Assembly (NCBI GenBank): GCA_016929715.1
Contig: JAFGIG010000097.1
Span: forward strand, 1-60,712
DNA from: a candidate division WOR-3 bacterium
GTDB taxonomy: Bacteria > SDB-A
Direction of reading: 5' to 3'
DNA: 60,712 bases
Shown here: positions 1,954 through 58,161 of the stretch, one piece after another
How the letters are laid out: the number at the start of each line of letters is the position of its first letter
Position numbering within the stretch: position 1 is the first letter of the stretch
The notes under the pieces: generated by a model
The model's input: the letters and a program-made list of their open reading frames with translations, nothing else
Databases searched by the model: none
What the model was told of the DNA's origin: nothing
Translations under genes and position numbers: made by a program

Positions 1954-2006
1954 TTATGCCTCCTTTTACTTTATGCATTGTCAATTTAACCCTAATCGGT
2001 CTTCTT

Positions 2007-4808: not shown

Positions 4809-6130
4809 TTGTCTTCCTTGAGTATTTTTATAACTTCATCTTTTGACATATCAATATCACCCGCGCCGAGGAGAGCGATGATTCCGCGCGGTTTTAAGCC
4901 TGAAAGAATTTTAAGCATTTGATCTATTGTCTCTGCCATATAGGCGCTCTTTCCGGATTTTCGCAGGTCATCTATTATCAACTCCGATGTTACTCCGGGT
5001 ATCGGCTTTTCTCTCGCAGGGTATATTGGGAGAAGGATCAATTCATCCGCTGCTGAAAGGGCATCGGCAAAAGATTCGTGAAAATCTTTTGTTCTAGAAA
5101 ACAAATGAGGTTGGAAAACTGCCGTTATTTTCTTACCCGAAGATTTCAGCGCGTTCAGAGAAAAACGAAGTTCGGTCGGGTGATGAGCGTAATCGCTTAT
5201 TAAAACACTATCCTCAAACTTATAAACAACTTCCATTCTTCTTTTTATTCCTTTGAATGATAAGAGAGATTCTGCTGACTTTTTGGGCCGCACTCCCATT
5301 TCTTCAGCCGCTGCAACCGCTACGGCGGCATTTTGCAGATTATGTTTACCCGGCATTTTAAGCTTTATCTCCTGCCCGAAAAGCAAAACTGAATTTTCTC
5401 TAAAACTGTATTTCAAGTCGCAACCCATTGTTTCGCCTAAAGTTACTGTTTTCGCTTTTTTCTCCTTCGCTGCTTTGGCAGTCATTTTGTCACATACGTG
5501 TATTATGCATTTTTCGGAATTTTCTTCGAATTTCCGGAATGCCTCCAGAATTTCTTCTTCTCCTGAATAGAATTTTCCGATGTGATCCGCTTCTATTGAA
5601 GTTATTACTCCGAGTTTTGGAGAAAACAAAAGAAACGTCCTGTCGCTTTCATCCAGTTCGCAAACGGCGGTCTTTTTTTCAGACCAGCATAGACCGCTTT
5701 CCCAGCCGAAAGGCGCTCCACCGGTGATTCCCAGAACACCAACGCCGTTTTCCCTCAAAATGTGAACGAGCATTGAGACAGTGGTAGTTTTACCGTGAGT
5801 CCCTGCCACTCCGGTCAATCGGGTGTTTTCTAAACTGTCTCTCAAGGCTTCTCCCCTGGAAAACATCGGCAAACTCATGCTTTGCGCCTTTTGGATCTCT
5901 TCGCATTTCAGGTCAACGGCTCTTGAATACACGACTTTGTCTATTCCTTTAAGATGATCCGGGGAATGTCCCTTGATGGTTCTTATGCCCTCTGATTCGA
6001 GTAATAAAGCGTTTTCATTTAAGTTCTTATCGCAACCGTTGACACTGCTTCCTTTATTCTTCAGCAATATTGCAAGAGGCGTCATTCCCGAACCGCAAAT
6101 TCCAAGCATGTGAATATTTTCAGATTTCAT
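4805..6130 (-). CDS. murC: UDP-N-acetylmuramate--L-alanine ligase
   Basis: GICGSGM N-terminal Rossmann motif, GTHGKTTT P-loop and Mur ligase C-terminal domain; 4-nt overlap with murB. Confidence 0.93.
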   Translation of the reverse strand: MKSENIHMLGICGSGMTPLAILLKNKGSSVNGCDKNLNENALLLESEGIRTIKGHSPDHLKGIDKVVYSRAVDLKCEEIQKAQSMSLPMFSRGEALRDSLENTRLTGVAGTHGKTTTVSMLVHILRENGVGVLGITGGAPFGWESGLCWSEKKTAVCELDESDRTFLLFSPKLGVITSIEADHIGKFYSGEEEILEAFRKFEENSEKCIIHVCDKMTAKAAKEKKAKTVTLGETMGCDLKYSFRENSVLLFGQEIKLKMPGKHNLQNAAVAVAAAEEMGVRPKKSAESLLSFKGIKRRMEVVYKFEDSVLISDYAHHPTELRFSLNALKSSGKKITAVFQPHLFSRTKDFHESFADALSAADELILLPIYPAREKPIPGVTSELIIDDLRKSGKSAYMAETIDQMLKILSGLKPRGIIALLGAGDIDMSKDEVIKILKEDK

Positions 6131-7190
6131 TAATAATCTCCTCGCTTATCAATCGAGCGGGATCGCATCTTATATGAGAAATATTTTCTCGGGGTTTCAA
6201 CTCAGAATAATTTTTCTCAAAAGCTTTTTCAATGCTGTCATACAGCGTTTTCGCGTTTAATCTTTCCTCATCAATAATTACCGCTATTCCTTTTTTCTCA
6301 AGTTGAAGAGCGTTATCAATCTGATGACCTCTGGCTAATTTCAACGGAACTAATACTGATGGAGTCCCGGAAGCCGACAGTTCGGCTACTGTCATCGCTC
6401 CGGAGCGTGAAAGCACGACATCCGCGCAGGCGTATGCTGAAGCCATGTCATCGATGTAACGAAAAACAATTGGTTTTTCACCGCACTTTTCAAAGAGACC
6501 TATTGAAAATTTTCCTGATGAAGCCAGTAATTGAGCTTCTCCCGGGATTCCAAAATTTTTATACATATCATAAAATGTTTTCTCCAGAGTTTGAGATCCC
6601 TGACTGCCCCCAAAAACGAGAATGACTTTTCTGTCAGGACTGAGATTGAATTTTTCTAAAGCTTCTTTTCTTTTAACCTTTCCAATTTCCTTTCTCACAG
6701 GTGTTCCTGTGTGAACAGTTCTGACAGTCGCCGGCAGATATTTAGATGTTTCGCTGAAAGCCAAAAACACTTTTTTTGAAAATCTGCAGAAAAGCCTTGT
6801 CGTCATTCCGGGCTTTGTATCCGCTTCGAATATGTATATCGGGACAGAAAGAATGATGCACGATAACATGACAGGAACAGTCGCGAAAGAACCCGTTCCA
6901 AAAACCGCATTCGGTTTTATACCTTGTATTTTTCTCGCACAGAAATAAACACCCCTAAAAAGGACCAGCAAGGAGCCTATTTTTTCCGAAAGTTTTTTTC
7001 CTGCCCATGGAAGACTTGCAATTTCTAAGTAAGCATAACCCTCTTCATTCACGATTTTTTCCGACATTCCTTTTCCGATTCCGGAAAAATAGATTTCCGC
7101 TTTTTCTTTCGCCTCCTTTGCAACCGATAGAGCCGGATATAAATGTCCGCCGGTTGTCCCTACGGCAATTAGAAGCCTTGCTTTTTTCAC
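6120..7190 (-). CDS. murG: undecaprenyldiphospho-muramoylpentapeptide beta-N-acetylglucosaminyltransferase
   Basis: GGTGGHLYPAL N-terminal motif, GT28 architecture, dcw synteny. Confidence 0.93.
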   Translation of the reverse strand: MKKARLLIAVGTTGGHLYPALSVAKEAKEKAEIYFSGIGKGMSEKIVNEEGYAYLEIASLPWAGKKLSEKIGSLLVLFRGVYFCARKIQGIKPNAVFGTGSFATVPVMLSCIILSVPIYIFEADTKPGMTTRLFCRFSKKVFLAFSETSKYLPATVRTVHTGTPVRKEIGKVKRKEALEKFNLSPDRKVILVFGGSQGSQTLEKTFYDMYKNFGIPGEAQLLASSGKFSIGLFEKCGEKPIVFRYIDDMASAYACADVVLSRSGAMTVAELSASGTPSVLVPLKLARGHQIDNALQLEKKGIAVIIDEERLNAKTLYDSIEKAFEKNYSELKPRENISHIRCDPARLISEEIINEI

Positions 7191-8458
7191 GAGCTGTTCC
7201 CCGTCTTTTGCCCTGCAGAACGGATGTAATATCCTCTGCTATTCAGCTTGCTTTTTGTGCTGAGAAAAATCATCTCTCTTTTTTTTATAATATTTTCATT
7301 CATCTGCCTGATTTTTGATTCAGCTGAAATATTCAAAAGAATTCCGAGCATAAAAAGATTTCCTACCATCGATGTTCCTCCGTAAGAAACAAAAGGGAGA
7401 ACAAGTCCGGTAGCGGGAAGATAACCTATGCTGATAAAAGCGTGGATAATTGCAAAAACAAAAAAATTAGCTGAAATGCCGAATGCAAGAAAAAACAGAA
7501 ACCTGTCTTTGTCCTCAAAAAACAAAGCAATCTTAAAACCGAGCACGAGAATCACAAAATACAAGGACATAAGGAAAAGCGTCCCGACAAAGCCCATTTC
7601 TTCTCCTACTGCCGCTATTATGAGATCTCTGTCAACTTCAGGGATAAAAGATCCGTTTTTGAGTTCTCCTTTGCAGAGGCCTCTTCCAAAGAGACCTCCG
7701 TTGGCAAAAGCAAGTATAGAATTCTGCATCTGTGAGTTTTCCGGAACGGCTGTTTCGCCTCTTCTTATGCTTATCGCGTAGTTTTTTATTCTCTCGTCTA
7801 TATGCTTGAACCTGCTGCCGGGCAGTAAATACAACATTAACCCGATTGACAGCACACACATTATTAGGACCAAGGAAAACTTCAGGGGAACATTTCCAAC
7901 GAAAAAGAACACAAAAATTAGAAGAAGAAGAACCAACGCCGTTGAAACATCAGGCTCTATCGCGACAAGAGCTATTATTCCTCCAATTATTATGAGAAGT
8001 CCCCATGACCATTTTGGGTTTTTCTCCTTGACTGTGCTGTTTTTTCTCCTTATGTAATGCGAAACGTAAAATATCAGAACGATTTTGGCAAGCTCTGACG
8101 GCTGAAAATTCAAAAATCCTATTTTTAACCATCTGTGAGCTCCGTTAATGTTTGAACCAAACAGAATTACTGCAAATAAAAGAATTATAACGGCAAATGA
8201 AAAGAACAGTATAAGAACTGTATTATCAAGCTTTTTCAAAGGAAGGCAAAAAGCTATAATCATCGCAAATAAACCGATGCCTATATTGAGAAGGTGCCTG
8301 TATGCTGAACTTGAAGGACCAAAGCTGAATACTGAAGCTCTGTGCTGAGCTGAAAATACGCTAATTATCCCTATGGCGAGCAGGACGGCAACTGCCAGCA
8401 GCAGCGCATAGTCGGCTTTTAAGGCTTTTTCCCTTAATTTAGTTTCATCTCTTCTCAT
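7187..8458 (-). CDS. ftsW: SEDS-family peptidoglycan glycosyltransferase FtsW
   Basis: Polytopic membrane protein with FQPSELAK and SYGGTS SEDS motifs. Start placed at the internal Met (MRRDETKL); the ORF-track start at 8521 would overlap murD by 77 nt. Confidence 0.9.
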   Translation of the reverse strand: MRRDETKLREKALKADYALLLAVAVLLAIGIISVFSAQHRASVFSFGPSSSAYRHLLNIGIGLFAMIIAFCLPLKKLDNTVLILFFSFAVIILLFAVILFGSNINGAHRWLKIGFLNFQPSELAKIVLIFYVSHYIRRKNSTVKEKNPKWSWGLLIIIGGIIALVAIEPDVSTALVLLLLIFVFFFVGNVPLKFSLVLIMCVLSIGLMLYLLPGSRFKHIDERIKNYAISIRRGETAVPENSQMQNSILAFANGGLFGRGLCKGELKNGSFIPEVDRDLIIAAVGEEMGFVGTLFLMSLYFVILVLGFKIALFFEDKDRFLFFLAFGISANFFVFAIIHAFISIGYLPATGLVLPFVSYGGTSMVGNLFMLGILLNISAESKIRQMNENIIKKREMIFLSTKSKLNSRGYYIRSAGQKTGNSS

Positions 8459-9788
8459 AATAATCTCTGACTTCCCGCGAAAATACATCTCCTCTTTCCT
8501 GAAAATCCTTAAACATGTCAAAACTTGCCATTCCCGGATTTAGAATAACCGTTTCACCTGCTCTAGCTTTTTTTGCTGCTTTTTCCACTGCCTCTTTCAT
8601 TCCTTGGGCAATTTGGTGGTCAACGTTCATCTCTAAAAGCTTTTTTGAAAGATCCGCTGAACTCGCGCCTATAAGAATCACTGATTTTGCATAATCCCTG
8701 CAGGACAAAGCTATTTCCGACAAATCAGTGTTTTTCGCCTTTCCTCCTACTATTGTTACTGATCCTCGAAAAGCTTCGAGAGATCTCCTAAAAGCCGCTT
8801 CGTTTGTGCACATCGAGTTATTTATAAATAATATTCCTTCGAAATATCCGATTTTTTCAAGACGGTGACGGAGTCCTTTGAATTCTTTAACTGCTTCGAC
8901 GATATCTTGCGGTTTTATTCCTATCAAATATGCCGATATTCCGGCCGCGAGAACGTTCTCGAGGTTATGCTTTCCCTTGAGAAACAACTCGTCTTCTCCT
9001 ACGCTGAATTCCAAGTCACCTTCCGGCATGAAAACAGCTTTCGATTCATTAATGCAGGCCCAATTTTTAATGTCTTTTCCGGAACCGAAAAAATATTTCC
9101 TGCACTGAGCACCTTCCGACATATATACTATTTCCGGAAAATCCGAGTTGAGAACTGCAAAGCCGTTTTTTTTCACTCTCCTTATTAGATCCGCCTTCAA
9201 AGAAGCGTATGTTTTCATCTCTCTGTGCCGGTCCAAATGATCGCTTGAGATGTTTGTCCATACAGCCGCGTCGGTCGAAAAATCCTTTACCCTTTCCATT
9301 TGAAAACTGCTTATCTCGGCGCTTACCCATTCGTTGGGAAGAGCCTGGATGGAAATTTCAGACAGAGGAATACCGGGAGCCAGATTTCCTCCCATATGGC
9401 ATTTTATTCCTGAATGATTTAAAACATGACAAAAGAGGGCAGTTGTTGTGCTTTTCCCGTTTGTTCCGGTTATTGACATGAGATTTGACCTTAAAAATTT
9501 CGAGGCAATTTCGATTTCCGAAATGACATCAATCTTTCTTGTTAAAAAATTTTTAACTATATTTGACTCCGTATTAATTCCCGGGCTTATGACCGCATAA
9601 TCGCAATCAAATGCCCTTTCCGAGTGCCCGTTTTCCTCAAATTGGACTCCAAGGGTTCTTAACGTTTTTTTTACGTCTTCGTTTATGGAGTCCTTATCCG
9701 TCAAAAATACTCTACTCCCTTTTAGATTAAGCAGTTTTGCAACCGCTATTCCGCTTCTACCCGCTCCTAACACGGTAATTTTTTCCAT
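8445..9788 (-). CDS. murD: UDP-N-acetylmuramoylalanine--D-glutamate ligase
   Basis: VLGAGRSGIA Rossmann start and GTNGKSTT P-loop. Start set at MEKITVLGAG (9788), just after the mraY stop; the longer ORF to 9884 overlaps mraY. Confidence 0.93.
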   Translation of the reverse strand: MEKITVLGAGRSGIAVAKLLNLKGSRVFLTDKDSINEDVKKTLRTLGVQFEENGHSERAFDCDYAVISPGINTESNIVKNFLTRKIDVISEIEIASKFLRSNLMSITGTNGKSTTTALFCHVLNHSGIKCHMGGNLAPGIPLSEISIQALPNEWVSAEISSFQMERVKDFSTDAAVWTNISSDHLDRHREMKTYASLKADLIRRVKKNGFAVLNSDFPEIVYMSEGAQCRKYFFGSGKDIKNWACINESKAVFMPEGDLEFSVGEDELFLKGKHNLENVLAAGISAYLIGIKPQDIVEAVKEFKGLRHRLEKIGYFEGILFINNSMCTNEAAFRRSLEAFRGSVTIVGGKAKNTDLSEIALSCRDYAKSVILIGASSADLSKKLLEMNVDHQIAQGMKEAVEKAAKKARAGETVILNPGMASFDMFKDFQERGDVFSREVRDYYEKR

Positions 9789-9790
9789 AA

Positions 9791-10882
9791 TCACCTTATT
9801 TTCAGCGTGCTGATTCCTATGAGTGCAAACAATATCGCCAGAAGCCAGAATCTGACGACAATTTTGCTTTCGGGCAATCCGCACTTTTCAAAATGATGAT
9901 GTATGGGAGTCATCTTGAAAATCCTTTTTCCGCCTGTCATCTTAAAATACGAAACCTGAAGTATCACAGACAAAGCTTCCACAACAAAAACTCCGCCTAT
10001 AAAAACAAGTAAAATTTCCTGTTTTATTAAAACTGCCATCAAACCCAGAGCTCCGCCAAGTGAAAGCGAGCCTGTATCACCCATAAAGACCTGAGCGGGG
10101 TGAGCGTTAAACCATAAAAAACCAAGACAGGCTCCGAAGGCGGCGGCTCCGAAAACAGTGACTTCAGCCGCAAGCGGATCAAAACCTATATGCAGATACT
10201 GAGAAGCCTTGAAGTTACCTGCTATGTAGGAAACCACTGCAAATGATGCGAAAGAGGCCGCCAGAGAACCGGCTGCCAGTCCGTCCAAGCCGTCAGTAAT
10301 ATTGACTGAATTTGAAGCGCCGAGTATCACTGTTAAAATCAGAGGAATGTATAACCAACCAAAGTCAACTATTAAATTTTTTAGAAAAAGTGCGTGAGTC
10401 TGGGTGACTTTCAGATCTCCCCCGGAAGGAAACTTAAAGAGCATGAATCCTACAAAACCGGCGAGAAAGATTTGACCTATAAGTTTATATTTTCCTCTCA
10501 TTCCTTTTTTTCTTTTCATTTTCATCAGATCATCAAGAAATCCGAAAGTTCCGAGCCATATCATGGATGAAAGAAGAATAATTATGTTTCTGTTTGTCAA
10601 GTCGCCCCAGATAATCACCGATACAAGAATTGACACTACAATAAGAATTCCCCCCATTGAAGGCGTTCCGATTTTCTTTTCATGCCCTTCAGGAGTGAAT
10701 TCTCTCACTACGGAACCGGTTCTGTGTTTCTGCAGTTTTCTGATGACGTAAGGCCCGGCAAAAAATGATATAAAAAGCGCGGTTACAACTGCGTAAGCTG
10801 ACCTGAAAGTGATATAACCCAAGACGTTGAAGACTGAAAAAGTGTCTTTTAATCCGAAAAGGATCTTATACATTTCGACCAC
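9791..10882 (-). CDS. mraY: phospho-N-acetylmuramoyl-pentapeptide transferase
   Basis: NSVNITDGLDGLA and MGDTGSLSLGG motifs; 10-TM profile. Confidence 0.96.
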   Translation of the reverse strand: MVEMYKILFGLKDTFSVFNVLGYITFRSAYAVVTALFISFFAGPYVIRKLQKHRTGSVVREFTPEGHEKKIGTPSMGGILIVVSILVSVIIWGDLTNRNIIILLSSMIWLGTFGFLDDLMKMKRKKGMRGKYKLIGQIFLAGFVGFMLFKFPSGGDLKVTQTHALFLKNLIVDFGWLYIPLILTVILGASNSVNITDGLDGLAAGSLAASFASFAVVSYIAGNFKASQYLHIGFDPLAAEVTVFGAAAFGACLGFLWFNAHPAQVFMGDTGSLSLGGALGLMAVLIKQEILLVFIGGVFVVEALSVILQVSYFKMTGGKRIFKMTPIHHHFEKCGLPESKIVVRFWLLAILFALIGISTLKIR

Positions 10883-12212
10883 CAGATTTCAGAGTATCGG
10901 CTATATTATCCAGCTCCATAGCTCTGCTTCCTTTAATTAAAACTACGTCACCCTCTCTAACATCATCTATAAGTGTTTGGAGAGCCTGTCTCCAATCATC
11001 CGCTTCCCTGCAAATCACACTTTTAGAGCTATTCTCTTTCGCACCTTTAAGGATGAAACCTGAATATTCTCCTACTGCGATTATCTCTGAAAAACCGAGT
11101 TTTACAGCATATGAACCCGCCTTCTCATGGAAGAACGGGCTTTCTTTCCCCAATTCCTTCATGTCGCCGATTACCGCCAACTTCCTGCCATCAAAGAAAT
11201 TTGCAACATATTTCATGGCAGATTCCAGGGCGACAGGACTGGAGTTATATGAATCGTCAATAACAGTAATTCCGCGGGATCTAAACACATCCAGCCTGTT
11301 TGGAGGAAGTTTCATTTCAGAAATTCCTCGTGAAATCTCTCGTGCTTCAAGACCGCAAAACAAACCGGTTTTCAATGCCGCTAAAGCGGCGTAAAGACCG
11401 GATTCACCCGGAGATCTGACGCAAAATTCAATATTTTCAGCAATAAAATTTGTCTTTGTTTTACCCCTTCTGATATTTGTGACCTTTTGATGCCGAACTC
11501 CGAAGTATTGAATCTTAGCCCCGTATTCATCTATGCGCTTTGTGATCTCTTCGTCGTCGCCGTTTACAAAAGCTTTTCCGTTTTCTCTAAGATTTTCAAT
11601 TATTTCAAATTTGGAATCGGCAATAGAGTCAAGCGAACCGAAAATTTCAAGATGAACAGGCGCTATCCTTGTGATAATAGCAATATCGGGCTTCGCTATC
11701 GAACATAGGTTTTTAATGTCATGTTTTTTTCTCGCTCCCATTTCGAGAACAAAATAGTCCGCTTCGCTGTCTGCGTTCAGTATTGTCAGAGGCATTCCAA
11801 TTTCAGTGTTCATGTTTCCTTCGCTTGCCGTAACTTTGAAGCCCGTCGAAAAAACCGATCTGACAGCTTCCTTTGTCGTAGTCTTACCAACCGATCCTGT
11901 CACTCCGATTACTTTCGCGCCCGAAAGAGTTATCTTTGCGGATGCAAGAACGCCTATGGCTTTTATGCAGTCAGGGACTAAAACGATTGGTCCATCAATT
12001 TTCTTTTCGCATAAAACGGCTGCGGCTCCGTTTTTTAAGGCTTGGGCGACATAAAGATGTCCGTCGGTCTTTTGGCCTTTTAACGCGACAAACATGTTGT
12101 TTTTAACTATTTTTCTCGAATCGGACGAGAACCCCTTGACCTGTATTTTTTCAGAAACGTTTTCTACTTTTCCTCCTGTAAGCTTTGCAAGGTATCCTAA
12201 TTCTATTTCCAC
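10866..12212 (-). CDS. murF: UDP-N-acetylmuramoyl-tripeptide--D-alanyl-D-alanine ligase
   Basis: GVTGSVGKTTTKE P-loop; Mur ligase middle and C-terminal domains; synteny between murE and mraY. Confidence 0.92.
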   Translation of the reverse strand: MEIELGYLAKLTGGKVENVSEKIQVKGFSSDSRKIVKNNMFVALKGQKTDGHLYVAQALKNGAAAVLCEKKIDGPIVLVPDCIKAIGVLASAKITLSGAKVIGVTGSVGKTTTKEAVRSVFSTGFKVTASEGNMNTEIGMPLTILNADSEADYFVLEMGARKKHDIKNLCSIAKPDIAIITRIAPVHLEIFGSLDSIADSKFEIIENLRENGKAFVNGDDEEITKRIDEYGAKIQYFGVRHQKVTNIRRGKTKTNFIAENIEFCVRSPGESGLYAALAALKTGLFCGLEAREISRGISEMKLPPNRLDVFRSRGITVIDDSYNSSPVALESAMKYVANFFDGRKLAVIGDMKELGKESPFFHEKAGSYAVKLGFSEIIAVGEYSGFILKGAKENSSKSVICREADDWRQALQTLIDDVREGDVVLIKGSRAMELDNIADTLKSGGRNV

Positions 12213-13666
12213 CCTGCCTCCTCGAGAGCCGCTCTTGCCTCTTCACTGTCATCGAACCTGAATTCCGTGACGCCTACTATCTGGCATATTTCATGCCCTT
12301 TGCCGCAGATAACCACTACTGAATTTTCAACGGCTTTATTAATCGCTTCCCTTATGGCTTCTTTTCTGTTTCTGATTACGAGCGGCTTTTTATTCATCCC
12401 AAGGATAATTTCTTCGATAATTTTTTCAGCGTCTTCGCGTCTGGGATTGTCGTCTGTCAATATAACTGTATCTGAGTAAGTTTCTGCAATTTTTCCCATA
12501 ATCGGCCTTTTTAGTCTGTCCCTTTCGCCTCCGCATCCGAATACAGTTATGAGCTTTGCCGGTTTTAGTCTCCTGAAGCTTAAAAGCAGATTTTCCATGG
12601 CATCCGGTGTGTGTGCAAAATCTACAAAAACACCGAAAGGAGCTCTGGATTTTATCTTCTGCATTCTGCCAGGAATCGTCTTAACAGATTCAAGGCCTGC
12701 CTTTATGCTCTGATGATCTATCCCTAACTTTACCGCGCAAGCAGAAGCTCCGACTGCGTTGAGAATATTTATCGCCCCCGGTATATTAAGTTTGATTTGG
12801 AAATCTGCACCCTCACCCCTTAGAAAAAAGCATGAGCCTTTGAAATCAGAATATATCTGATCCGCCCAGAAATCGGCTTTTTTCTCCATGGAATAAAAAT
12901 ATACGGGCTTGTCAGTAGATTTAGTTATTTCATCTTTTCTGCCGACAGATTCACTCACACATGAGAAGGATTTTTTTTTCATAAGTGAAAAAATACCGAG
13001 TTTCGCGTTGAAGTAAGACCTGAGGTCTCCATGCCAGTCAAGATGATCGTGTCCGAAACTTGAAAACACAACTGCGTCCAATTTCATGTATTTTGTGCGC
13101 CCCATGGAAAGAGCGTGAGATGAGACTTCAACCACGACATGCGTGGTTTTTTTGTTTTTCATTTTACCCAATAACCTCGCAATTTCGAGGGCTTGGGGAG
13201 TTGTATTATAGGCTTTTTCTTTTTCATCAGGAAAATAATGACCTGTAGTTCCTATCATACCTGAATTCAATCCTGCTCCATGAAACATTGACCTGAGCAT
13301 GAAAGACAAGGTGGTTTTGCCGTTTGTGCCTGTTACACCTGTTATAACGAGAGTCTTAACGGGATCATCATATATGAAATCGGCTATTTCCATCGCGGCT
13401 TTCTCCGGCTGTTTCGATAAAATCTGCGCGACAGGAAGATCTAATTCCACGAGTTTGTCCGAAAGAATCGCCGAAGCACCTTTTTCTATTGCTATTTTAG
13501 CCCACTCTCTCCCAGAAGAACTTTTTCCATCAAGAGCCGCGAATACATCACCCTTTTCAATTGTTCTTGAATCAGGGCCTATTCCGCCCACTTGTATATT
13601 TTCTGATTTTTCCCCGACAATTTCAATGGAAGGGAAGCGCAGGCGAATGTCTTTTAATGTCTTCAT
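12203..13666 (-). CDS. murE: UDP-N-acetylmuramoyl-L-alanyl-D-glutamate--2,6-diaminopimelate ligase
   Basis: GVTGTNGKTT P-loop plus the DNPR motif (LTDDNPRRED) typical of meso-DAP-adding MurE. Confidence 0.94.
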   Translation of the reverse strand: MKTLKDIRLRFPSIEIVGEKSENIQVGGIGPDSRTIEKGDVFAALDGKSSSGREWAKIAIEKGASAILSDKLVELDLPVAQILSKQPEKAAMEIADFIYDDPVKTLVITGVTGTNGKTTLSFMLRSMFHGAGLNSGMIGTTGHYFPDEKEKAYNTTPQALEIARLLGKMKNKKTTHVVVEVSSHALSMGRTKYMKLDAVVFSSFGHDHLDWHGDLRSYFNAKLGIFSLMKKKSFSCVSESVGRKDEITKSTDKPVYFYSMEKKADFWADQIYSDFKGSCFFLRGEGADFQIKLNIPGAINILNAVGASACAVKLGIDHQSIKAGLESVKTIPGRMQKIKSRAPFGVFVDFAHTPDAMENLLLSFRRLKPAKLITVFGCGGERDRLKRPIMGKIAETYSDTVILTDDNPRREDAEKIIEEIILGMNKKPLVIRNRKEAIREAINKAVENSVVVICGKGHEICQIVGVTEFRFDDSEEARAALEEAGWK

Positions 13667-44209: not shown

Positions 44210-45931
44210 TCAGACTCCTTCGGATGCGAGGACCATTCTGTAAAGACTGCTCGTCTTCATAAGATACTCATGAGTTTCGAAGGCGAGTTGTCTTCCCCTG
44301 TGCAGGAATAATACTCTGTCTGACTGTTTTATCGTCGAAAGCCTGTGGCTGACCACCAAGATTATTGATTCGGCGTATCTTTCCTTCATGTATTTCCAGA
44401 GGGATTCTTCATTTTTCGAATCGAGAGCCGATGTGCAGTCGTCAAAAAGTATAAGAGAAGGCTTTCCCGCAAGAGCTCTCGCTATGGCAACTCTCTGTCT
44501 CTGCCCGCCGCTGACACCTACTCCTGCCTGCTGAAGTTTCGCTTGGGCTCCCCCGCTTATTTCTTTCGAAGTTATGTTGACCGCAAAAAGCGATTCAATT
44601 ACTGAATCCCCGTCAATATTTCTTCCGATGTCGACGTTGTCCCCTATTGTCTCGCTGAAAAGAAGCGATTCCTGAGGCACATATCCTATCTGAGATAAAA
44701 ATGAATTTCTTGAGTAGTCGCTCGTCCTTTTGCCGTTTATTAAATACTCCCCCTCCATCAAAGGAAGAAGAGAAGCCGCTATTTTTAAAAAAGTGCTCTT
44801 CCCGCTCCCGACTTCCCCTACTACTGCGATTATCTGACCTTCACTCGCAGAGAATTCTATTGCGCTTATTCCTTTTTCTTTGCCATAGATGAATCCGGCA
44901 TTTCCGAAATCCAAGCTCTTTATTTTTTTGCATTCCAAAAAACCTTCCTCGAGCTCTCCTGAAGGGAAATCCAGGATTTCATTTTCTCTGTCAATGGAAA
45001 TAAAAGCTTGTTTGGATGTGACAAATAGATTCGGTATGTCCATCATAGGAGCGAGAATCATATCGAGATACACATAAAAAGCGTAAAATTCACCGATACC
45101 TATGGTTCCCCTTATGACGAAAACGCCTCCGACAAACATCACGACGACTTTTCCTATCTGTCCCAAGATATTATAAGCCGAATGGACAAGCATGACGTAT
45201 TTTGCTATTTTCATATCTATTTTCAGTCTTCTGTCGAGAAGTTCTCTCAGGCGTTTTTCCTGCCCGACTTCGGCTCTGTATGCCTTGATTATCGATATAC
45301 CGGCGAAAGTGCTGTCAAGCAGATCGTTTGTCCTGCTGGTCGCTTTCCTGTTTTCCATGACAATTCTGCCGAGTTTGTTTTGGATCAGATAGAACAAGTA
45401 GAGCATAAATGGCAGTGGCAGAATTGATATAAGAGTCAGCTGTCTGTTCATATAAAACATCACCGCTAAACAGAAAAATAGTTTTGAGGTCGATTCAAGA
45501 GCCCTGAAAACCGCTGAACAACTGAACCATGCAATTCTCGGGTGCTCTACAATATCGTCAGTCAGCCTTGTGGCAAGGTCTCCAGGTCTGAAAGTGTTGA
45601 AGAATCTGTAGTCTTTTTTTAGCATGCTCGAAAAAACAAGATCCCTGACATCTAATCCGATTTTTGAATTGAGCCAGGCTCTCGCTCCCGGATATAGTCC
45701 GGCTACGAACTTCGCCAATGCCAAAGCCATAAGAAAAAGCAAAGTATTCCTGAAACCGTCCTGCAGAGCCGACCCTTTCAAAACATCATCTATGCCGTCT
45801 AGAAGAAACTTAAAAACCAGCGGGAAAGAAAGAGTCACCGCGCTCGATATAATAGTGAAGAAAAATAGAAACACTATGTGAAGTTTATGCTTTTTCCAGA
45901 ACTGGAAAATCCAGACAAAATATTTAATCAT
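44210..45931 (-). CDS. ABC exporter permease/ATPase subunit (heterodimer partner with non-canonical Walker B-Asp)
   Basis: 6-TM domain plus NBD. Walker A is GEVGSGKST and the signature is canonical (VSGGQRQR), but Walker B is LILFDDC (D in place of the catalytic E). Confidence 0.92.
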   Translation of the reverse strand: MIKYFVWIFQFWKKHKLHIVFLFFFTIISSAVTLSFPLVFKFLLDGIDDVLKGSALQDGFRNTLLFLMALALAKFVAGLYPGARAWLNSKIGLDVRDLVFSSMLKKDYRFFNTFRPGDLATRLTDDIVEHPRIAWFSCSAVFRALESTSKLFFCLAVMFYMNRQLTLISILPLPFMLYLFYLIQNKLGRIVMENRKATSRTNDLLDSTFAGISIIKAYRAEVGQEKRLRELLDRRLKIDMKIAKYVMLVHSAYNILGQIGKVVVMFVGGVFVIRGTIGIGEFYAFYVYLDMILAPMMDIPNLFVTSKQAFISIDRENEILDFPSGELEEGFLECKKIKSLDFGNAGFIYGKEKGISAIEFSASEGQIIAVVGEVGSGKSTFLKIAASLLPLMEGEYLINGKRTSDYSRNSFLSQIGYVPQESLLFSETIGDNVDIGRNIDGDSVIESLFAVNITSKEISGGAQAKLQQAGVGVSGGQRQRVAIARALAGKPSLILFDDCTSALDSKNEESLWKYMKERYAESIILVVSHRLSTIKQSDRVLFLHRGRQLAFETHEYLMKTSSLYRMVLASEGV

Positions 45932-47714
45932 AAATGATCTCCCCAGCCTGAAGTCTATACAACCCCGCGTAAATTCCTTCGGATTTCAGCAGGTCATCGT
46001 GAGTTCCCTGTTCCACGACTTCTCCCGTCTGAAGGACAATAATTTTATTGGCGTTTGTTATAGTGCTGAGCCTGTGAGCTACGACAATGGATGTTCTTTC
46101 CGCTGTGAGCATATCAGTCGCGTCCTGAATCTTCTTTTCCGTTCCCGGGTCGACTGACGATGTGGCTTCGTCAAGTATAAGTATCTCGGGATCGTAGAGA
46201 ACAGCTCTGCCGAGGCATATGAGCTGCCTTTCGCCCATAGATATGTTGAGTCCCCCTTCGCTGATTTCCTCTTCAAGTCCTTTTGGAAGTTTTTCAACTA
46301 TATCCCAGGCGTGCATTGATTCGAGCGCTCTTTTCTGCGCGAATCTAGACATCTCGTCGTTGAATACAGATATGTTCTCTGAAATAGTCCCGGAAAACAG
46401 GCTTACATTCTGCAGGACAAGTCCTATTTTGGAGCGCCAAAGTTCGAGTCTAAAACTTTTAATGTCGATGTCTCCGATTTTTATTACACCGTGGGTCGGT
46501 TCGTAAAACCTCAGAAGAAGGCTGATGATGGTCGTTTTCCCGCTCCCGCTCGCTCCGACAATCGCATACATTGAACCTCTCGGAATTGAAAAACTGACAT
46601 TTTTCAGCACCCAGGAATCTTTATATTTGAACCATACATTTTCAAATCTTATCTCTTTCCAATTTTGGGGAAAAGATTCTTCGCCTAACTCTCCGTCAGG
46701 CGTTTTTGTTTTAGTTTCGAGAATAGAAAATATTCTGTCAGCGGAAGCGAAAGCTCTCTGGACTTGATTCAGAGTTTCCGAGAACTGAACAATGGGCATG
46801 AAAAGCCTTCGGGTGTATTCGACAAAAAGGACAACTGTCCCGATTGTTATAACTCCTGTCGATAAATTGCTTCTGCCTCCCAATAAAATTATGATAACGA
46901 CAAGAATTTCGCACGCCCCGATAAAGCTCCAGTAAGCGTATTCAACTGTGTATGCTTTAACTTCACTTTTAAGGAAACCGACTCCTACATCGTGCATTTT
47001 CCTCTTCGCCATTTCGTTAGCTCTGAATATCTGAATCACCTGAACCGCTCTGACGTATTCTGTTATAAAACCGGTCATTTTAGCAAAACTCACTCTTACC
47101 TTTGAGGTGAGTTTTCTCGTCAATTTCAAAAAGAAATATGTCGTGAAAGCCACCGGAAAAAGAAGCGCCAGCACCATCAGGGTCATCTTGATGTTGGTAT
47201 GCATCATCACAACAAGTGTTCCCGTGAACATAATCAGGTTGGAAAGAAGCGCCATCGACACATCGCTGAAAAGCATTCTGACTCTTTCGGCATCGCTCTC
47301 AACTCTCGCCATAAGTTTACCCGGGGGGTTCGTATCAAAATAAGCCATGGAAAGCGTCAGAAGGTGACTGAAAAGCCTAGCTTTAAGATCTCTTATTATG
47401 GAAAGTCCTATCCTGGTCGTAATGATTATCTGAATGTAGGATATAATTACAGAGAAGGCAAAAATACCGGCAAACAAAGACGCGAGCCCAAACACTTCAG
47501 CCGTGTTTTTATCCGGTATGGCTTTGTCTATAACTTGCCTAAGTATGAGAGGAGCCGCCAACGCGCAGGCAGTGACCGCGAGAAGAAGGCACATCGCTGC
47601 GAAAAACTGCCACAGAAAAGGTCTTATGAAAGGGAACATGACCTTTATAAGTTCAGCGGTGCCGTATTTTCTCGCTTCTTTTTCCAAAAGATCATCGTTC
47701 TTCCAAAACCTCAT
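45924..47714 (-). CDS. ABC exporter permease/ATPase subunit (heterodimer partner with degenerate signature motif)
   Basis: Walker A is GASGSGKTT and Walker B is canonical (ILILDEATS), but the signature is degenerate (ISMGERQ in place of LSGGQ). 8-nt overlap with the partner gene. Confidence 0.92.
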   Translation of the reverse strand: MRFWKNDDLLEKEARKYGTAELIKVMFPFIRPFLWQFFAAMCLLLAVTACALAAPLILRQVIDKAIPDKNTAEVFGLASLFAGIFAFSVIISYIQIIITTRIGLSIIRDLKARLFSHLLTLSMAYFDTNPPGKLMARVESDAERVRMLFSDVSMALLSNLIMFTGTLVVMMHTNIKMTLMVLALLFPVAFTTYFFLKLTRKLTSKVRVSFAKMTGFITEYVRAVQVIQIFRANEMAKRKMHDVGVGFLKSEVKAYTVEYAYWSFIGACEILVVIIILLGGRSNLSTGVITIGTVVLFVEYTRRLFMPIVQFSETLNQVQRAFASADRIFSILETKTKTPDGELGEESFPQNWKEIRFENVWFKYKDSWVLKNVSFSIPRGSMYAIVGASGSGKTTIISLLLRFYEPTHGVIKIGDIDIKSFRLELWRSKIGLVLQNVSLFSGTISENISVFNDEMSRFAQKRALESMHAWDIVEKLPKGLEEEISEGGLNISMGERQLICLGRAVLYDPEILILDEATSSVDPGTEKKIQDATDMLTAERTSIVVAHRLSTITNANKIIVLQTGEVVEQGTHDDLLKSEGIYAGLYRLQAGEIIYD

Positions 47715-55363: not shown

Positions 55364-56386
55364 TCAGCCGATAAGACCGAGTTTCACAAGATCCTGAATA
55401 TCCAGAATCCCGACAGGAACTCCGTTCTCGACTACAATGAGATTGTCGTATTCATGACTGGAGAAAAAATTAACCGCCTCGCACAATAAGGCATCCGACG
55501 AGATAGTAGACGGATTGTTGTTCATGAAATCGGACATTTTGCAGTTGACTATATCTTTTCCTTTTTGTCTTAGATGCCTTCTCAGGTCGCCGTCAGTGAA
55601 TATACCCGCCAGAAAGCCGTTTTCATCCAGAATCGATACAGCTCCGAGCCTTGATTCGGTCATCTTTACCGCAGCGTCAAGCAGAGTTTCATCTTTGCCG
55701 CAGACCGGGTTGTATTTTCTGATTACGTCCTTTACTTTGACGGTCATGAGTTTCGTGTGTTCGAAAAATTTGGTTGTCCCTTCGTTGGTCAGAGAATTAT
55801 CGCAGAGTTTCATCAAAACAGAATATGGGACTGTGCAGGCGTGGGCTCCTGCCAAAATTGCCTGCCTGACGTGCTCGGCGTGTCTGACGGAAGAGACCAT
55901 TATCTGAGTTTCATAACCGTATTTATCTGCAGTTTCCGCGAGGTCGGACACCAGCGCAATCGCGTCATGTCCCTGATCGTGAAGTCTGCCCACGAGAGGA
56001 CAGACGTAAGAAGCTCCTGCTTCCATCGCGAGATATCCCTGATTAAGAGTGTAAACAAGATGAACATTTACGAGATTTCCTTCTGCTACAAGCCTCGTGC
56101 AGGCTTTTATTGAATGATTGGAAACAGGTATCTTAAACACTGGTTTGGTTTTCAGGGGCAAAGATAATATTTCGTGTGCTTTCCTGATAATTTGATCCGC
56201 ATCTTCTCCCAGAGCTTCGACGTGAAGTTCGGGCACCATTTTTGACAGTTTGACAATGGCTCCGTTTATGTCAGTTATCCCCTTTCTGTGCATAAAAGTC
56301 GGCGTGGTCGTCAAGCCTTTCAAAACACCTAATTCGAACGCCTCTTCAATTTCTTTGAAATCTACCGAATCAAGAAATATTCTCAT
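55364..56386 (-). CDS. fusion protein: fructose-6-phosphate aldolase/type-3B transaldolase barrel + KdsD-type CBS pair
   Basis: The N-terminal ~215 aa are colinear with E. coli FSA (MRIFLDSVD..GLTTTPTF; Schiff-base Lys in VFKIPV; GASYVCPLVGRL). The C-terminal ~115 aa carry KdsD/KpsF hallmark strings (AGIFTDGDLRRHL, VGILDIQDLVKLGLIG). The start overlaps the kdsA stop by 17 nt. Confidence 0.8.
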   Translation of the reverse strand: MRIFLDSVDFKEIEEAFELGVLKGLTTTPTFMHRKGITDINGAIVKLSKMVPELHVEALGEDADQIIRKAHEILSLPLKTKPVFKIPVSNHSIKACTRLVAEGNLVNVHLVYTLNQGYLAMEAGASYVCPLVGRLHDQGHDAIALVSDLAETADKYGYETQIMVSSVRHAEHVRQAILAGAHACTVPYSVLMKLCDNSLTNEGTTKFFEHTKLMTVKVKDVIRKYNPVCGKDETLLDAAVKMTESRLGAVSILDENGFLAGIFTDGDLRRHLRQKGKDIVNCKMSDFMNNNPSTISSDALLCEAVNFFSSHEYDNLIVVENGVPVGILDIQDLVKLGLIG

Positions 56387-57218
56387 TTATTCCGCCTTTT
56401 ACTAAAAGATTGTGAATTTGGATTATCGGACCGACGAATTTTTCGAATTCTTCAGTGTTCAGTTGGCTCGAGGAATCGCAAAGGGCATCCCTCGGGCAGG
56501 GGTGAACTTCGAGAAACAAACCGTCAATTCCTGAAGCCGCCGCCGCCCTTGCGAGAGTGGAAAGGTATTCTTTTCTTCCTCCTTCCGGCTCAGCGCTCGG
56601 GATGCCGTATTTCCTGACGCTGTGAGTTGCGTCAAATACAACCGGGTATCCGATTTTGCCTAATTCAAAAAATGATCTCGGATCCACCACAAGATCGTTG
56701 TAGCCGAAAGTATAGCCTCTTTCAGTAATCATCAAATCATTATTCCCTGTTTTCTCCGCTTTTTCCACCGGATATCTCATGTTTTCCGGCGCGATGAACT
56801 GTCCGTGCTTTATGTTGAGAGGTTTTTGTGTCTTTGCCGCCTCTTCCACAAGCGAAGTCTGCATGCAGAGATACGCCGGTATCTGGACAAGATCGAGTAT
56901 TGTCGAAGCTTTTCGTGCCTGCTCTGCGGTATGAACATCGGATGTCACGGGAATGTTAAATTCATTTTTAACTTTCAGAAGTATTTCAAGGCCCTTATCT
57001 ATCCCCGGTCCCCGGTAGTTTTCGGGCGAACTTCTATTGTCTTTGAGAAAAGAAGATTTGAATATGAAGCCGACCCCGAGTTTTTCACATGACTTTGCCA
57101 AAAATTCCGCGGTCTCCATGGTGTTGTTTTCATTTTCAATTACGCACGGACCGGCTATGACGAATAAATTTTCTCCGCCGCAAAAAACATCTTTTACTCT
57201 GATTTTTTTTCTGCTCAT
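56370..57218 (-). CDS. kdsA: 3-deoxy-8-phosphooctulonate (KDO8P) synthase, metal-dependent type
   Basis: FVIAGPCVIE (Cys as in metallo-KDO8PS), FKSSF.KDNRSS, DVH, KHGQF and FDATHS motifs. Confidence 0.93.
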   Translation of the reverse strand: MSRKKIRVKDVFCGGENLFVIAGPCVIENENNTMETAEFLAKSCEKLGVGFIFKSSFLKDNRSSPENYRGPGIDKGLEILLKVKNEFNIPVTSDVHTAEQARKASTILDLVQIPAYLCMQTSLVEEAAKTQKPLNIKHGQFIAPENMRYPVEKAEKTGNNDLMITERGYTFGYNDLVVDPRSFFELGKIGYPVVFDATHSVRKYGIPSAEPEGGRKEYLSTLARAAAASGIDGLFLEVHPCPRDALCDSSSQLNTEEFEKFVGPIIQIHNLLVKGGINENIS

Positions 57219-57381: not shown

Positions 57382-58161
57382 TTACTTGACCTCACCTGAA
57401 ATAAACTCAAGTATATCGGCACAGCCCTCACCGTGGGACTTTTCGCTCAAATACAGTTTTCCTTTTTCGAGCGGAACTCCTTTCTTCAGGGTTAAGATCT
57501 CTTTTTTACCTGCTAGCCTTGAAAAGATTTTTTTCGAAAGATTTGACGGAGCAAAAGAATAATCAGCTTCTACCAAAAGAGGCAGGTCGTTGAGCGAATC
57601 GGCTATTGAGAAGATAGAGGCATCTTTGTCTATTTTTCTCAGGCCCAGATATTTGTCCTCGCCGCTGGGGACAATATCAACCGCCACATCGGAATGAGTC
57701 GCGTAAAAGCCGGTTATTTTTTTATCGGATAGAAAAACTTTTACCTTTTCAAACAGTTTTTCGGGTGGTTCTCCTGAAGTTCCGTCGTCAGTGAATATGC
57801 TCACTGTTGCAAGCCTTCTTGCAAAATATTTTATGCTTCCGAGATCGGCTTTTTTCAGCTCTTTTTGGAGTTCTTTTACTGAAAAAATAATCTCCTCAGA
57901 CAAAATCACCTTTTCACTTGTTTTGTCGCTATAGACGCATCCTGTCTCAAGGACAAGCCCTTCAACAGCTTCGAGGATTTTTTTGGAAACATGCTTTTTA
58001 ACAAATTCAAGGTCGTTACCCGAGCATATAAATATTCTGAAACGGTCATTGAGACTCAGGAAAATATCAGATATTTTTTGCGCGAGTTTTTCGTCTATTT
58101 TCCAACCGGCGTCGAGAAGAGTTCCATGCAGGTCGACGCCGATGAGGTTTTTACGGGGCAT
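57382..58161 (-). CDS. HAD-IIB (Cof-type) hydrolase with atypical DxH motif I
   Basis: Motif I is IGVDLHGTLL (His where DxD Asp+2 is expected). A cap region follows, then GEDKYLG (motif III Lys) and IADSLNDLPLL (motif IV). Confidence 0.75.
   Translation of the reverse strand: MPRKNLIGVDLHGTLLDAGWKIDEKLAQKISDIFLSLNDRFRIFICSGNDLEFVKKHVSKKILEAVEGLVLETGCVYSDKTSEKVILSEEIIFSVKELQKELKKADLGSIKYFARRLATVSIFTDDGTSGEPPEKLFEKVKVFLSDKKITGFYATHSDVAVDIVPSGEDKYLGLRKIDKDASIFSIADSLNDLPLLVEADYSFAPSNLSKKIFSRLAGKKEILTLKKGVPLEKGKLYLSEKSHGEGCADILEFISGEVK

Follow-up and report, generated by a model that had tools for sequence, protein, structure and literature searches.

According to the textbooks, KdsD catalyzes the first committed step of Kdo synthesis, and in Gram-negative bacteria it is regarded as a conserved target; an E. 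coli mutant without kdsD and gutQ grows only when A5P is added. The other enzymes that matter here are the short transaldolases (type 3B, or subfamily 4) and the fructose-6-phosphate aldolases (FSA), in which the C-terminal helix of the barrel closes the active site of the neighboring subunit. In transaldolase, the equivalent of the residue that we call Asp6 below starts the cleavage of the C-C bond. Short TAL barrels also occur in marine phages, where cyanophage TalC is known as an auxiliary metabolic transaldolase (PHROG 440). And this type of barrel is able to bind and turn over A5P (D-arabinose 5-phosphate), given that E. coli FsaA cleaves it with a Km of 0.65 mM (PMC6900487).

The gene that we analyze joins a barrel of this type to the CBS pair of a KdsD. 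The window is a whole 60.7-kb contig (60,712 nt) of a WOR-3 MAG, and the fusion protein (NCBI record MBN1620330.1, candidate division WOR-3 bacterium) is annotated as 'CBS domain-containing protein'. Our best reading is that it has KdsD function at a position coupled to kdsA. We give a probability of about 0.6 to the proposal that the protein supplies A5P to KdsA, as a non-homologous stand-in for the SIS domain of KdsD. The features of the locus are collected in Table 1.

Table 1. Features of the fusion gene and its surroundings, in window positions.
Feature	Position	Strand	Remarks
HAD-IIB (Cof-type) hydrolase	57382..58161	-	163 nt upstream of kdsA
kdsA (3-deoxy-8-phosphooctulonate synthase)	56370..57218	-	282 aa; immediately upstream of the fusion gene
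kdsA stop / fusion-gene start overlap	56370..56386	-	17 nt
Fusion gene, H/C/L-type TAL barrel + KdsD-type CBS pair	55364..56386	-	340 aa
Barrel domain, residues 1-215	55742..56386	-	Predicted fold similar to short transaldolases
Lys85 codon	56132..56134	-	TAL/FSA Schiff-base lysine; invariant in the core family and the wider H/C/L clade
His109 codon	56060..56062	-	Clade-specific, in place of the water-binding Thr of transaldolase and FSA
Cys129-Pro130-Leu131 codons	55994..56002	-	In place of Ser-Pro-Phe (transaldolase) or Ala-Pro-Tyr (FSA)
Arg134 codon	55985..55987	-	Phosphate-binding arginine, conserved
Ser166 and Arg168 codons	55883..55891	-	Conserved, phosphate site
CBS pair, residues 216-340	55367..55741	-	End-to-end homology to the C-terminal CBS pair of KdsD/KpsF/GutQ

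The original prediction described a clean two-part fusion, a TAL_FSA barrel and two CBS domains without SIS, and this is the domain set that Pfam returns: TAL_FSA (PF00923) covers residues 3-223 with E = 1.2e-35, the two CBS domains are found with E = 3.1e-18, and the search of the protein for SIS (PF01380) finds nothing. The CBS pair was also predicted to come from a KdsD, and every comparison agrees. In a profile comparison, KpsF/KdsD is its best match over every other CBS family. TIGR00393 reports 3.6e-19 and 69.4 bits (cutoff 203.7) at model positions 153-260 only, and NF008141 places residues 215-339 on model positions 203-328 (61.9 bits, cutoff 505). Using BLASTP, the CBS pair of E. coli KdsD (202-328) aligns end to end with residues 214-339 (E = 1e-15), the string GIFTDGDLRR being identical in both, and the best PDB matches of the pair are the isomerase CBS domains 4o9k, 3fna, and 3k2v. 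The fusion protein is thus like KdsD, GutQ, and KpsF from the domain boundary to the C-terminus. Unlike KdsD, it has in place of the SIS domain an unrelated (beta/alpha)8 barrel with a Schiff-base lysine, which excludes SIS-type enediol isomerization as its chemistry.

Can we be sure that the fusion is real? The idea that a transaldolase gene and the 3′ end of a kdsD were joined by an assembly error or a frameshift has nothing in its favor beyond the unusual architecture, and we consider it refuted. The best 120 protein matches are 337-350 aa long and 61-97% identical, with 95-100% query coverage and no gap at the junction. More than 100 full-length homologs are free of gaps, they are drawn from independent NCBI, JGI, ENA, and Logan assemblies, and full-length copies are encoded in at least 599 species genomes. 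The predicted model is also confident across the junction, and none of its segments is under pLDDT 50; the geometry between the two domains is uncertain in it (pTM 0.59). Among the structure matches, we find no solved structure with the whole architecture, only separate barrels and isomerase CBS pairs.

The predicted fold of the barrel resembles that of the short transaldolases Thermotoga maritima TM0295 (1vpx) and those of Bacillus subtilis (3r8r) and Thermoplasma acidophilum (3s0c), at 32-35% identity and with TM scores of 0.85-0.92 normalized to the target (0.88-0.92 for 1vpx, using Foldseek). They have in common the Schiff-base lysine, which lies in the context VFKIPV exactly as had been quoted, the catalytic Asp/Glu, Asn107, and the phosphate-binding Arg/Ser/Arg. 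Altogether, D6, T26, T27, P29, E57, K85, N107, R134, S166, and R168 are common to these barrels and to transaldolases; Asp6, Glu57, and Lys85 (D17, E96, and K132 of TalB) are invariant in the family, and the phosphate-site role of Arg134 follows from its equivalence to TalB R181 (PMC3962226).

The differences are concentrated at four positions, 109, 129, 131, and 165. Canonical transaldolases have Thr, Ser, Phe, and Ala there (47 representatives, with T/S/F in all 47), and FSA has Thr, Ala, Tyr, and Ala. The barrel has instead His, Cys, Leu, and Ser, fixed in its clade with at least 80% conservation, and we use 'H/C/L type' as a label for His109, Cys129, and Leu131. These three take the positions of Thr156, Ser176, and Phe178 in TalB, which deal with the donor and the catalytic water. 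The motif GASYVCPLVGRL had been likened to GAEYVAPYVNRI of FSA, and it is actually here that the protein differs from FSA as well as from transaldolase: Cys129 stands for Ala or Ser and Leu131 for Tyr or Phe. The E. coli enzymes FsaA and FsaB (1l6w) are 24-29% identical to the barrel and have identical residue numbering in the active-site strands. FSA has Gln59, Leu107, Thr109, Ala129, Tyr131, and Ala165, whereas the fusion protein has Glu57, Asn107, His109, Cys129, Leu131, and Ser165; the tyrosine acid/base that defines FSA is missing.

Curated profiles tell the same. The fusion protein scores 51.3 bits with TIGR02134 (cutoff 281.95) and 40.9 bits with TIGR00874 (cutoff 396.2), both transaldolase models, and 155.3 bits with TIGR00875, the FSA model (cutoff 245.95), for which its relatives score 94-226 bits. 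No H/C/L member reaches a curated transaldolase or FSA cutoff. By its residues and its scores, the barrel belongs with neither the transaldolases nor the FSAs.

The H/C/L clade is coherent down to 31% identity, and it has members with and without the CBS pair. Among TAL clades, CBS fusions are confined to this one, and for the CBS pairs in these fusions KdsD is the best match. Carriers are found among anammox bacteria, Nitrospira, sulfate reducers, Leptospiraceae, and numerous uncultured Gammaproteobacteria and Bacteroidota; examples are Ca. Rariloculus (NZ_OZ253579.1), OY969712.1, OZ245000.1, Thermonema rossianum DSM 10300, Thermoflexibacter ruber DSM 9560, bacterium 336/3 (GCA_001281695.1), and Scalindua AMX11. 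Public annotation calls the proteins 'transaldolase', 'FSA', or 'CBS domain-containing protein'. The original prediction knew of no characterization of the architecture, and a full-text literature search found no publication on the family. A Brachyspira genome paper was rejected as a prior account because the matching terms occur in unrelated passages of it. The H/C/L barrels are a widespread, distinct, strongly conserved, and uncharacterized TAL/FSA subfamily.

At the locus itself, the product of kdsA scores 324.9 bits on NF003543 (cutoff 242), and the coordinates agree with the overlap that had been predicted between the kdsA stop and the start of the fusion gene. That overlap, together with AAAGGCGGA, a purine-rich ribosome-binding sequence located 4-12 nt 5′ of the ATG, suggests that translation of the fusion gene is coupled to that of kdsA, and the two genes would be co-transcribed. 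The HAD-IIB hydrolase next to kdsA, which is arranged in the same way in the nearest relative (L001), is possibly a non-orthologous Kdo-8-phosphate phosphatase, as we infer. We find no SIS, kdsB, or kdsC within the 60.7-kb window, and an Rfam scan of 53-60.7 kb reports no match.

The original prediction proposed a functional link to kdsA and a survey of the neighborhood in relatives, and the link is borne out by an adjacency that spans at least nine phyla and extends to phage contigs. Of the 80 species loci of the core family, 62 have kdsA next to the family gene on the same strand, 47 have a KdsC-like phosphatase immediately downstream, and 43 have WaaA in the vicinity, with LpxL, heptosyltransferases, and LpxK also recurrent. 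Scalindua has the order reversed (the fusion, then kdsA) and keeps the adjacency. A metagenome scan, which used an alignment of four sequences as the query, adds a distant sub-clade 31-43% identical to the window protein. Of its 28 loci, 21 have kdsA immediately upstream, whether the member is a barrel alone or has the CBS fusion. One of these arrangements is kdsC-kdsA-barrel-kdsB (L101), with KdsA and KdsB over their equivalog cutoffs. Counting also five viral loci, kdsA is adjacent in 88 of the 114 sampled loci. Neighbors such as kdsC, kdsA, kdsB, and waaA are what one would expect of a gene of the KdsD/KpsF/GutQ kind, and the kdsD-kdsC order of E. coli resembles that of the family gene and the kdsC-like gene. 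A role in the Kdo pathway is presumably common to KdsD and the H/C/L protein. A SIS domain is found in none of about 130 loci or the window (tblastn at 1e-5; phmmer at E ≤ 1 on 9,865 six-frame segments).

Of the 18 core-family loci where kdsA is not adjacent, 15 are from Bacteroidota, and in the complete genome of one carrier, 'bacterium 336/3', the family gene has no kds neighbors. In one Bacteroidota lineage, Lys85 and the phosphate arginines are lost and the fusion persists, which implies a non-catalytic role at least there; we found no synteny common to this lineage and the intact Cytophagales members. As for other recurrent neighbors, Gammaproteobacteria have an S1/P1-nuclease-like protein and a protein without an NCBIfam match, and the marine clade has methyltransferases and a 2-hydroxyacid dehydrogenase.

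The phage copies come from IMG/VR contigs, where the barrel comes after kdsA in 5 of 6. One of these contigs (L121) is clearly phage, with a split PolB, a clamp loader, and GroEL. A search of phage and plasmid collections finds no family member, the best matches there being ordinary transaldolase or FSA genes at about 40% identity. Cyanophage TalC and the phage H/C/L barrel are both short TAL barrels of marine phages and fall in one PHROG. We considered TalC as a possible H/C/L type and found the T/S/F signature instead; moreover, kdsA does not adjoin it.

With this context in hand, we can weigh the possibility of an ordinary transaldolase of the pentose-phosphate pathway, which acquired a CBS regulator and happens to be near kdsA, with A5P made by a canonical KdsD elsewhere. 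Fold and core catalytic residues resemble those of a transaldolase, Leu is hydrophobic like Phe, and public annotation says transaldolase. We consider it very improbable all the same. At four positions, the residue that the 47 canonical representatives have almost without exception is replaced, and the replacement is kept down to 31% identity; the scores, too, are under every curated transaldolase cutoff. The barrel's genomic partner is kdsA and not the pentose-phosphate genes; a transaldolase would have no reason to stay beside kdsA in many phyla and in phages, and the genuine phage transaldolase TalC has the ordinary signature and no adjoining kdsA. The CBS-gated transaldolase that had been offered as an alternative is contradicted by the four clade-specific replacements at catalytic and donor-pocket positions.

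How would the H/C/L protein supply A5P? The route originally put forward, an FSA-like condensation of free glycolaldehyde and D-glyceraldehyde 3-phosphate (G3P), is possible, and it is not favored because the FSA hallmarks and the FSA score are missing. E. coli FsaA does interconvert A5P and glycolaldehyde plus G3P (PMC6900487), the aldol apparatus of Asp6, Glu57, Lys85, and Asn107 is invariant here along with the phosphate site, and the remodeled donor pocket suits a donor without a C1 hydroxymethyl. Yet both hallmarks of FSA are gone, Gln59 having become Glu57 and Tyr131 Leu131, and the protein falls far short of the FSA cutoff. In TalB, it is the change of Phe178 to Tyr that confers aldolase activity (PMC3962226), and that Tyr is Leu131 in this protein. 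A gene that could supply glycolaldehyde recurs in none of the surveyed neighborhoods. Glycolaldehyde is a minor by-product of central metabolism, and an essential envelope pathway is unlikely to depend on it in species as diverse as these, at least 599 in number. We regard this condensation as unlikely, and a Schiff-base conversion of a pentose 5-phosphate is favored over it.

The mechanism that we infer for such a conversion starts from the positions of the clade changes. All four (109, 129, 131, and 165) line what in transaldolase and FSA is the acid/base site and the pocket for the ketose C1 hydroxymethyl, and for this reason Lys85 would form its Schiff base with a terminal aldehyde, C1 of the pentose 5-phosphate, and not with a ketose. 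The phosphate would be held by the conserved Arg134, Ser166, and Arg168. A C2 enamine would then form and be resolved with the help of the new His109 and/or Cys129, releasing A5P. The physiological substrate would be ribose 5-phosphate (R5P), which we favor because free glycolaldehyde is not an available central metabolite. The net reaction would be a C2 epimerization: the C2 proton would be removed and put back, or the sugar would undergo retro-aldol cleavage and the fragments would recombine without leaving the enzyme. Aldol chemistry fits better than simple proton exchange, since Asp6, with its role in C-C cleavage, is retained. To our knowledge, a C2 epimerase is without precedent in the TAL family, and we hold the route from R5P to A5P only tentatively. 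As for the CBS pair, it would sit directly on the C-terminal helix of the barrel and may deliver the same regulatory input as in KdsD.

A true aldose-ketose isomerase would be a like-for-like substitute for the KdsD reaction, converting Ru5P to A5P without a Schiff base, by proton transfer between Glu57 and His109 as in triosephosphate isomerase. The gain of a His beside a conserved Glu and Lys does recall the triad of that enzyme. The nucleophilic Lys85 would, however, be expected to trap the ketose, and a Schiff base at C2 cannot yield the C2 hydroxyl of the aldose; besides, the clade changes mostly enlarge side chains in the ketose C1-hydroxymethyl pocket. We find this isomerase hard to credit.

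It is similarly doubtful that the enzyme belongs to the Kdo pathway beyond A5P supply, for instance as a Schiff-base aldolase or epimerase that would make a modified sugar from Kdo8P or a similar ulosonate. Such a role would agree with the distant marine clade, whose glycan clusters have a second DAHP-synthase paralog, a 2-hydroxyacid dehydrogenase, cytidylyltransferases, and methyltransferases, and the His of the pocket could bind a carboxylate. Against it, the minimal operons (L101, L002, and the phage module) lack a gene for the A5P supply step only, and the distance between phosphate site and Lys85 equals that in relatives binding F6P or A5P.

If A5P supply by the H/C/L protein is true, an analogous, non-homologous enzyme would be added to a core envelope pathway in hundreds of species. 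It would mend a systematic mis-annotation, through which metabolic reconstructions show a pentose-phosphate pathway that is wrongly complete and a Kdo pathway with a gap. The chemistry would be new within a barrel family much used in biocatalysis, and marine phages would have a second, distinct 'transaldolase-like' auxiliary gene, for surface-sugar synthesis rather than carbon flux. It is possible, though we would not bet on it, that the activity itself is new, a pentose-phosphate 2-epimerase working through a Lys Schiff base. In that case, hundreds of lineages would make Kdo and LPS independently of KdsD, and the barrel with kdsA would be a portable Kdo module of marine phages.

The window spans one complete contig (60,712 bp) of a candidate division WOR-3 MAG. 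Its fusion protein (NCBI MBN1620330.1), annotated only as a "CBS domain-containing protein", has the two-part architecture that the original prediction gave it: Pfam identifies a TAL_FSA domain (residues 3-223), two CBS domains, and no SIS domain. As had also been claimed, the CBS pair belongs specifically with those of KdsD/KpsF/GutQ. The KdsD model covers it from the model's SIS/CBS boundary to its C-terminus, residues 214-339 align with E. coli KdsD 202-328 (E = 1e-15) with GIFTDGDLRR common to both, and isomerase CBS domains are its best PDB matches. The expected 17-nt overlap between the start of the gene and the kdsA stop is there, AAAGGCGGA precedes the ATG by a few bases, and kdsA itself scores above the curated equivalog cutoff (324.9 bits vs. 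242). Domains, kdsA score, overlap and CBS matches thus confirm the initial observation as written. The AlphaFold model of the fusion is confident (pLDDT 89.8) and its barrel superposes on short transaldolases; structure comparison found no PDB entry with the whole barrel plus CBS architecture.

Coordinates of features in the window and in loci carrying relatives (L001, nearest relative).
Sequence	Feature	Position	Strand	Remark
Window	TAL-CBS fusion ORF	55364-56386	-	340 aa
Window	kdsA	56370-57218	-	directly upstream of fusion ORF
Window	Cof-type HAD-IIB hydrolase	57382-58161	-	163 nt upstream of kdsA; also in L001
Window	two adjoining MsbA-like ABC exporter genes	44210-47714	-	~8-10 kb from Kdo genes; same pair near locus in L001
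L084	marine barrel-only clade cluster	3236-12738		
L121	split polymerase with genes between its halves	1441-6127		
L121	family-B DNA polymerase, N-terminal gene	1441-3201		
L121	H/C/L barrel	4560-5198		PHROG 440
L121	family-B DNA polymerase, C-terminal gene	5198-6127		
L126	cyanophage TalC	3001-3648		PHROG 440
L127	cyanophage TalC	3001-3651		PHROG 440

An assembly or frameshift artefact, against which the original prediction had advised a check, is ruled out, and the junction is real. The best 120 matches in a collection of 5.8 billion proteins, drawn from NCBI, JGI, ENA and Logan assemblies, are full length (337-350 aa, 95-100% query coverage, 61-97% identity); a 30-sequence alignment (mean column identity 75%) runs through the domain junction without a gap; and among genomes scanned at one per species, at least 599 species have a full-length copy. 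Carriers, named from record titles, include Desulfuromonadaceae, Desulfobacterales, Leptospiraceae, Scalindua, Nitrospira, Rhodospirillales, Anaeromyxobacter and Gemmatimonadota, with many each in Gammaproteobacteria and Bacteroidota; two carriers, Thermonema rossianum and Thermoflexibacter ruber, are isolates in culture. Public annotation calls the family transaldolase, TalC/MipB-family FSA, or CBS domain-containing protein, and we found no paper or structure describing this barrel or its CBS fusion.

In the catalytic strands, where its residue numbers coincide with those of E. coli FsaA, the barrel conserves Asp6, Thr26, Thr27, Pro29, Glu57, Lys85 (the Schiff base), Asn107, Arg134, Ser166 and Arg168. 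Four other positions, fixed in the family, differ from both relatives: His109 (Thr in transaldolase and FSA), Cys129 (Ser in transaldolase, Ala in FSA), Leu131 (Phe and Tyr, respectively) and Ser165 (Ala in both). Position 28, Thr in core members but Asn in many distant ones, is therefore not clade-defining. We searched 1.84 billion cluster representatives exhaustively, sorting the nearest single-barrel ones by residue pattern. Forty-seven have Thr/Ser/Phe, none of them with a CBS pair; 32, down to 31% overall identity, have His/Cys/Leu, 13 with a CBS pair; and 2 have the FSA pattern. The His/Cys/Leu (H/C/L) signature is a property of the clade. Three barrel-only proteins (P0127, P0160, P0185) are 54-58% identical to CBS-fused P0135 and P0141, themselves only ~35% identical to the window protein, which implies more than one gain or loss of the CBS pair within the clade.

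In TalB, R181 (Arg134 here) binds the acceptor phosphate, the Ser176/Ala129 position sets donor polarity, and Phe178-to-Tyr turns transaldolase into aldolase (PMC3962226). Given these roles, the residue pattern indicates that the covalent and phosphate-binding machinery was kept while the donor-carbonyl pocket and acid/base site were rebuilt. By fold and core residues the H/C/L barrel belongs to the TAL/FSA superfamily, but it fails the defining-residue tests of both transaldolase and FSA, and no family member scored reaches the curated cutoffs of either. What the fusion has in common with KdsD is its CBS pair and its genomic role, nothing more.

That genomic role emerges from the best 80 of the at least 599 species loci, in which related species are not independent. 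ORFs were clustered without prior labels; genes in the retrieved loci were called simply, as ORFs and by tblastn with trusted E. coli K-12 proteins and window proteins as references. The commonest neighbours are KdsA, WaaA, a KdsC-like HAD phosphatase, LpxL and heptosyltransferases. On the same strand, kdsA adjoins the fusion in 62/80 loci; a kdsC-like gene follows immediately in 47/80, much as E. coli kdsD lies directly upstream of kdsC; and WaaA is nearby in 43/80. Of the 18 loci lacking kdsA, 15 are from Bacteroidota, whose operons are generally dispersed, and two of the other three have <450 nt of upstream DNA. Neither the window nor any of the loci showed a SIS domain (tblastn; phmmer at E ≤ 1, 9,865 six-frame segments).

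The arrangement varies. In Scalindua (L004, L007) the order is inverted, with kdsA 50 nt downstream of the fusion and waaA convergent beyond it; the pair is still together. In gammaproteobacterial loci (L009, L010, L013-L016, L019, L022, L026 and others) the kdsA-fusion-kdsC unit lies between two WaaA-like genes, the first immediately before kdsA and the second just past the kdsC-like gene, often with an S1/P1-nuclease-like gene ~2 kb downstream. Unlike most other lineages, where a KdsC-like gene sits right behind the fusion, the window has no KdsC-type (HAD-IIIA) phosphatase. Its HAD-IIB hydrolase, whose best NCBIfam matches are archaeal phosphoglycolate phosphatase models, well under cutoff, may be a non-orthologous Kdo-8-phosphate phosphatase. 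The MsbA-like exporters have fused transmembrane and ATPase domains.

Does kdsA go with the barrel or with the CBS pair? A sub-clade sharing just 31-43% identity with the window protein was used to seed a metagenome scan. Of the 28 loci recovered, 21 have kdsA immediately 5' of the barrel, most others being truncated, and the link is equal for barrel-only and CBS-fused members. As an example, locus L101 reads kdsC-type phosphatase, kdsA (339 bits vs. cutoff 314), barrel, kdsB (283 vs. 193). These four genes form a CMP-Kdo operon, with the barrel in the place of the one step that would otherwise lack a gene. In a marine barrel-only clade (L084; same gene order in L085, L096, L099, L100 and L104) the genes for the barrel and a D-2-hydroxyacid dehydrogenase are translationally coupled. 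The one-strand glycan cluster around them has two cytidylyltransferases, methyltransferases, a small HAD-like ORF, a GT2 and a second, divergent DAHP-synthase-family paralogue, ~23% identical to KdsA, and suggests synthesis of a modified ulosonic acid.

Phages carry the pair too, with kdsA then barrel in 5/6 IMG/VR contigs. L121 (UViG_3300025120_015076; L106 is the same contig) is unmistakably phage, with GTP cyclohydrolase I, a MazG-like gene, Hsp20, GroEL and clamp loaders. Between the halves of its split polymerase lie kdsA, a 101-aa DxD-motif ORF and the barrel, which looks like a Kdo mini-module, an auxiliary metabolic cassette. PHROG 440 "transaldolase" lumps this barrel with cyanophage TalC, which in contrast shows the usual Thr/Ser/Phe site and does not sit beside kdsA.

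As for chemistry, Lys85, Asp6 and Glu57 are strictly retained, which speaks for covalent catalysis through a Schiff base. If that base formed at C2 of ribulose 5-phosphate, no aldose with a C2 hydroxyl could result, and KdsD-like direct isomerisation by the barrel is therefore unlikely, unless the role of Lys85 has changed. The original prediction proposed aldol condensation of glycolaldehyde and G3P to A5P, and the retained Asp6 keeps aldol-type chemistry in play. However, central metabolism does not make free glycolaldehyde available, no gene producing it recurs among neighbours in the surveyed loci, and the FSA Tyr needed for free-donor activation is absent, a new His/Cys pair standing instead; this route now seems rather improbable. 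For these reasons we tentatively prefer C2 epimerisation of ribose 5-phosphate via an enamine, itself a possibility short of even odds, either by exchanging a proton or by cleaving the sugar phosphate and rejoining its parts before release. A5P is F6P minus C1. E. coli FsaA turns over A5P well (PMC6900487). All four clade-specific positions would line the pocket for the ketose C1 hydroxymethyl or supply acid/base, and a terminal aldehyde as the substrate carbonyl would fit them.

In one Bacteroidota lineage without the link to kdsA, the active site has gone as well. A profile search for TAL-CBS proteins returned many that have lost Lys85, mostly to Arg, and in which the phosphate arginines and His/Cys/Leu positions are scrambled (L112-L117, L128-L132; P0279-P0334, P0129, P0132, P0134, P0144). 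Loci sampled from six sub-lineages, with 8-10 kb flanks, all have one Bacteroidota synteny (GSDH, DUF2911, phosphodiesterase, peptidase M61, then the fusion), and none has kdsA or SIS within those flanks. Active-site patterns diverge fast, whereas the CBS pair remains conserved. These proteins form one orthologous lineage with a decayed active site, and count as a single evolutionary event. They are probably pseudoenzymes or repurposed CBS proteins; as far as sequence can tell, the lineage shows that catalysis is dispensable once kdsA is no longer linked, and warns that a non-catalytic role exists.

In short transaldolases and FSA, the C-terminal helix packs onto the neighbouring active site. 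The fusion's CBS pair is attached directly to that helix, which makes it a plausible lever for regulation.

The known Kdo pathway runs through KdsD, KdsA, KdsC and KdsB, then WaaA, and the substrates of KdsA are A5P and PEP. The barrel adjoins kdsA from Planctomycetota to phages, is in most loci directly followed by a kdsC-like gene, and in many lineages carries KdsD's own regulatory domain. On this comparative evidence, the most economical reading, to which we give a probability of roughly 60%, is that this enzyme provides A5P, standing in for the SIS domain of KdsD without being homologous to it.
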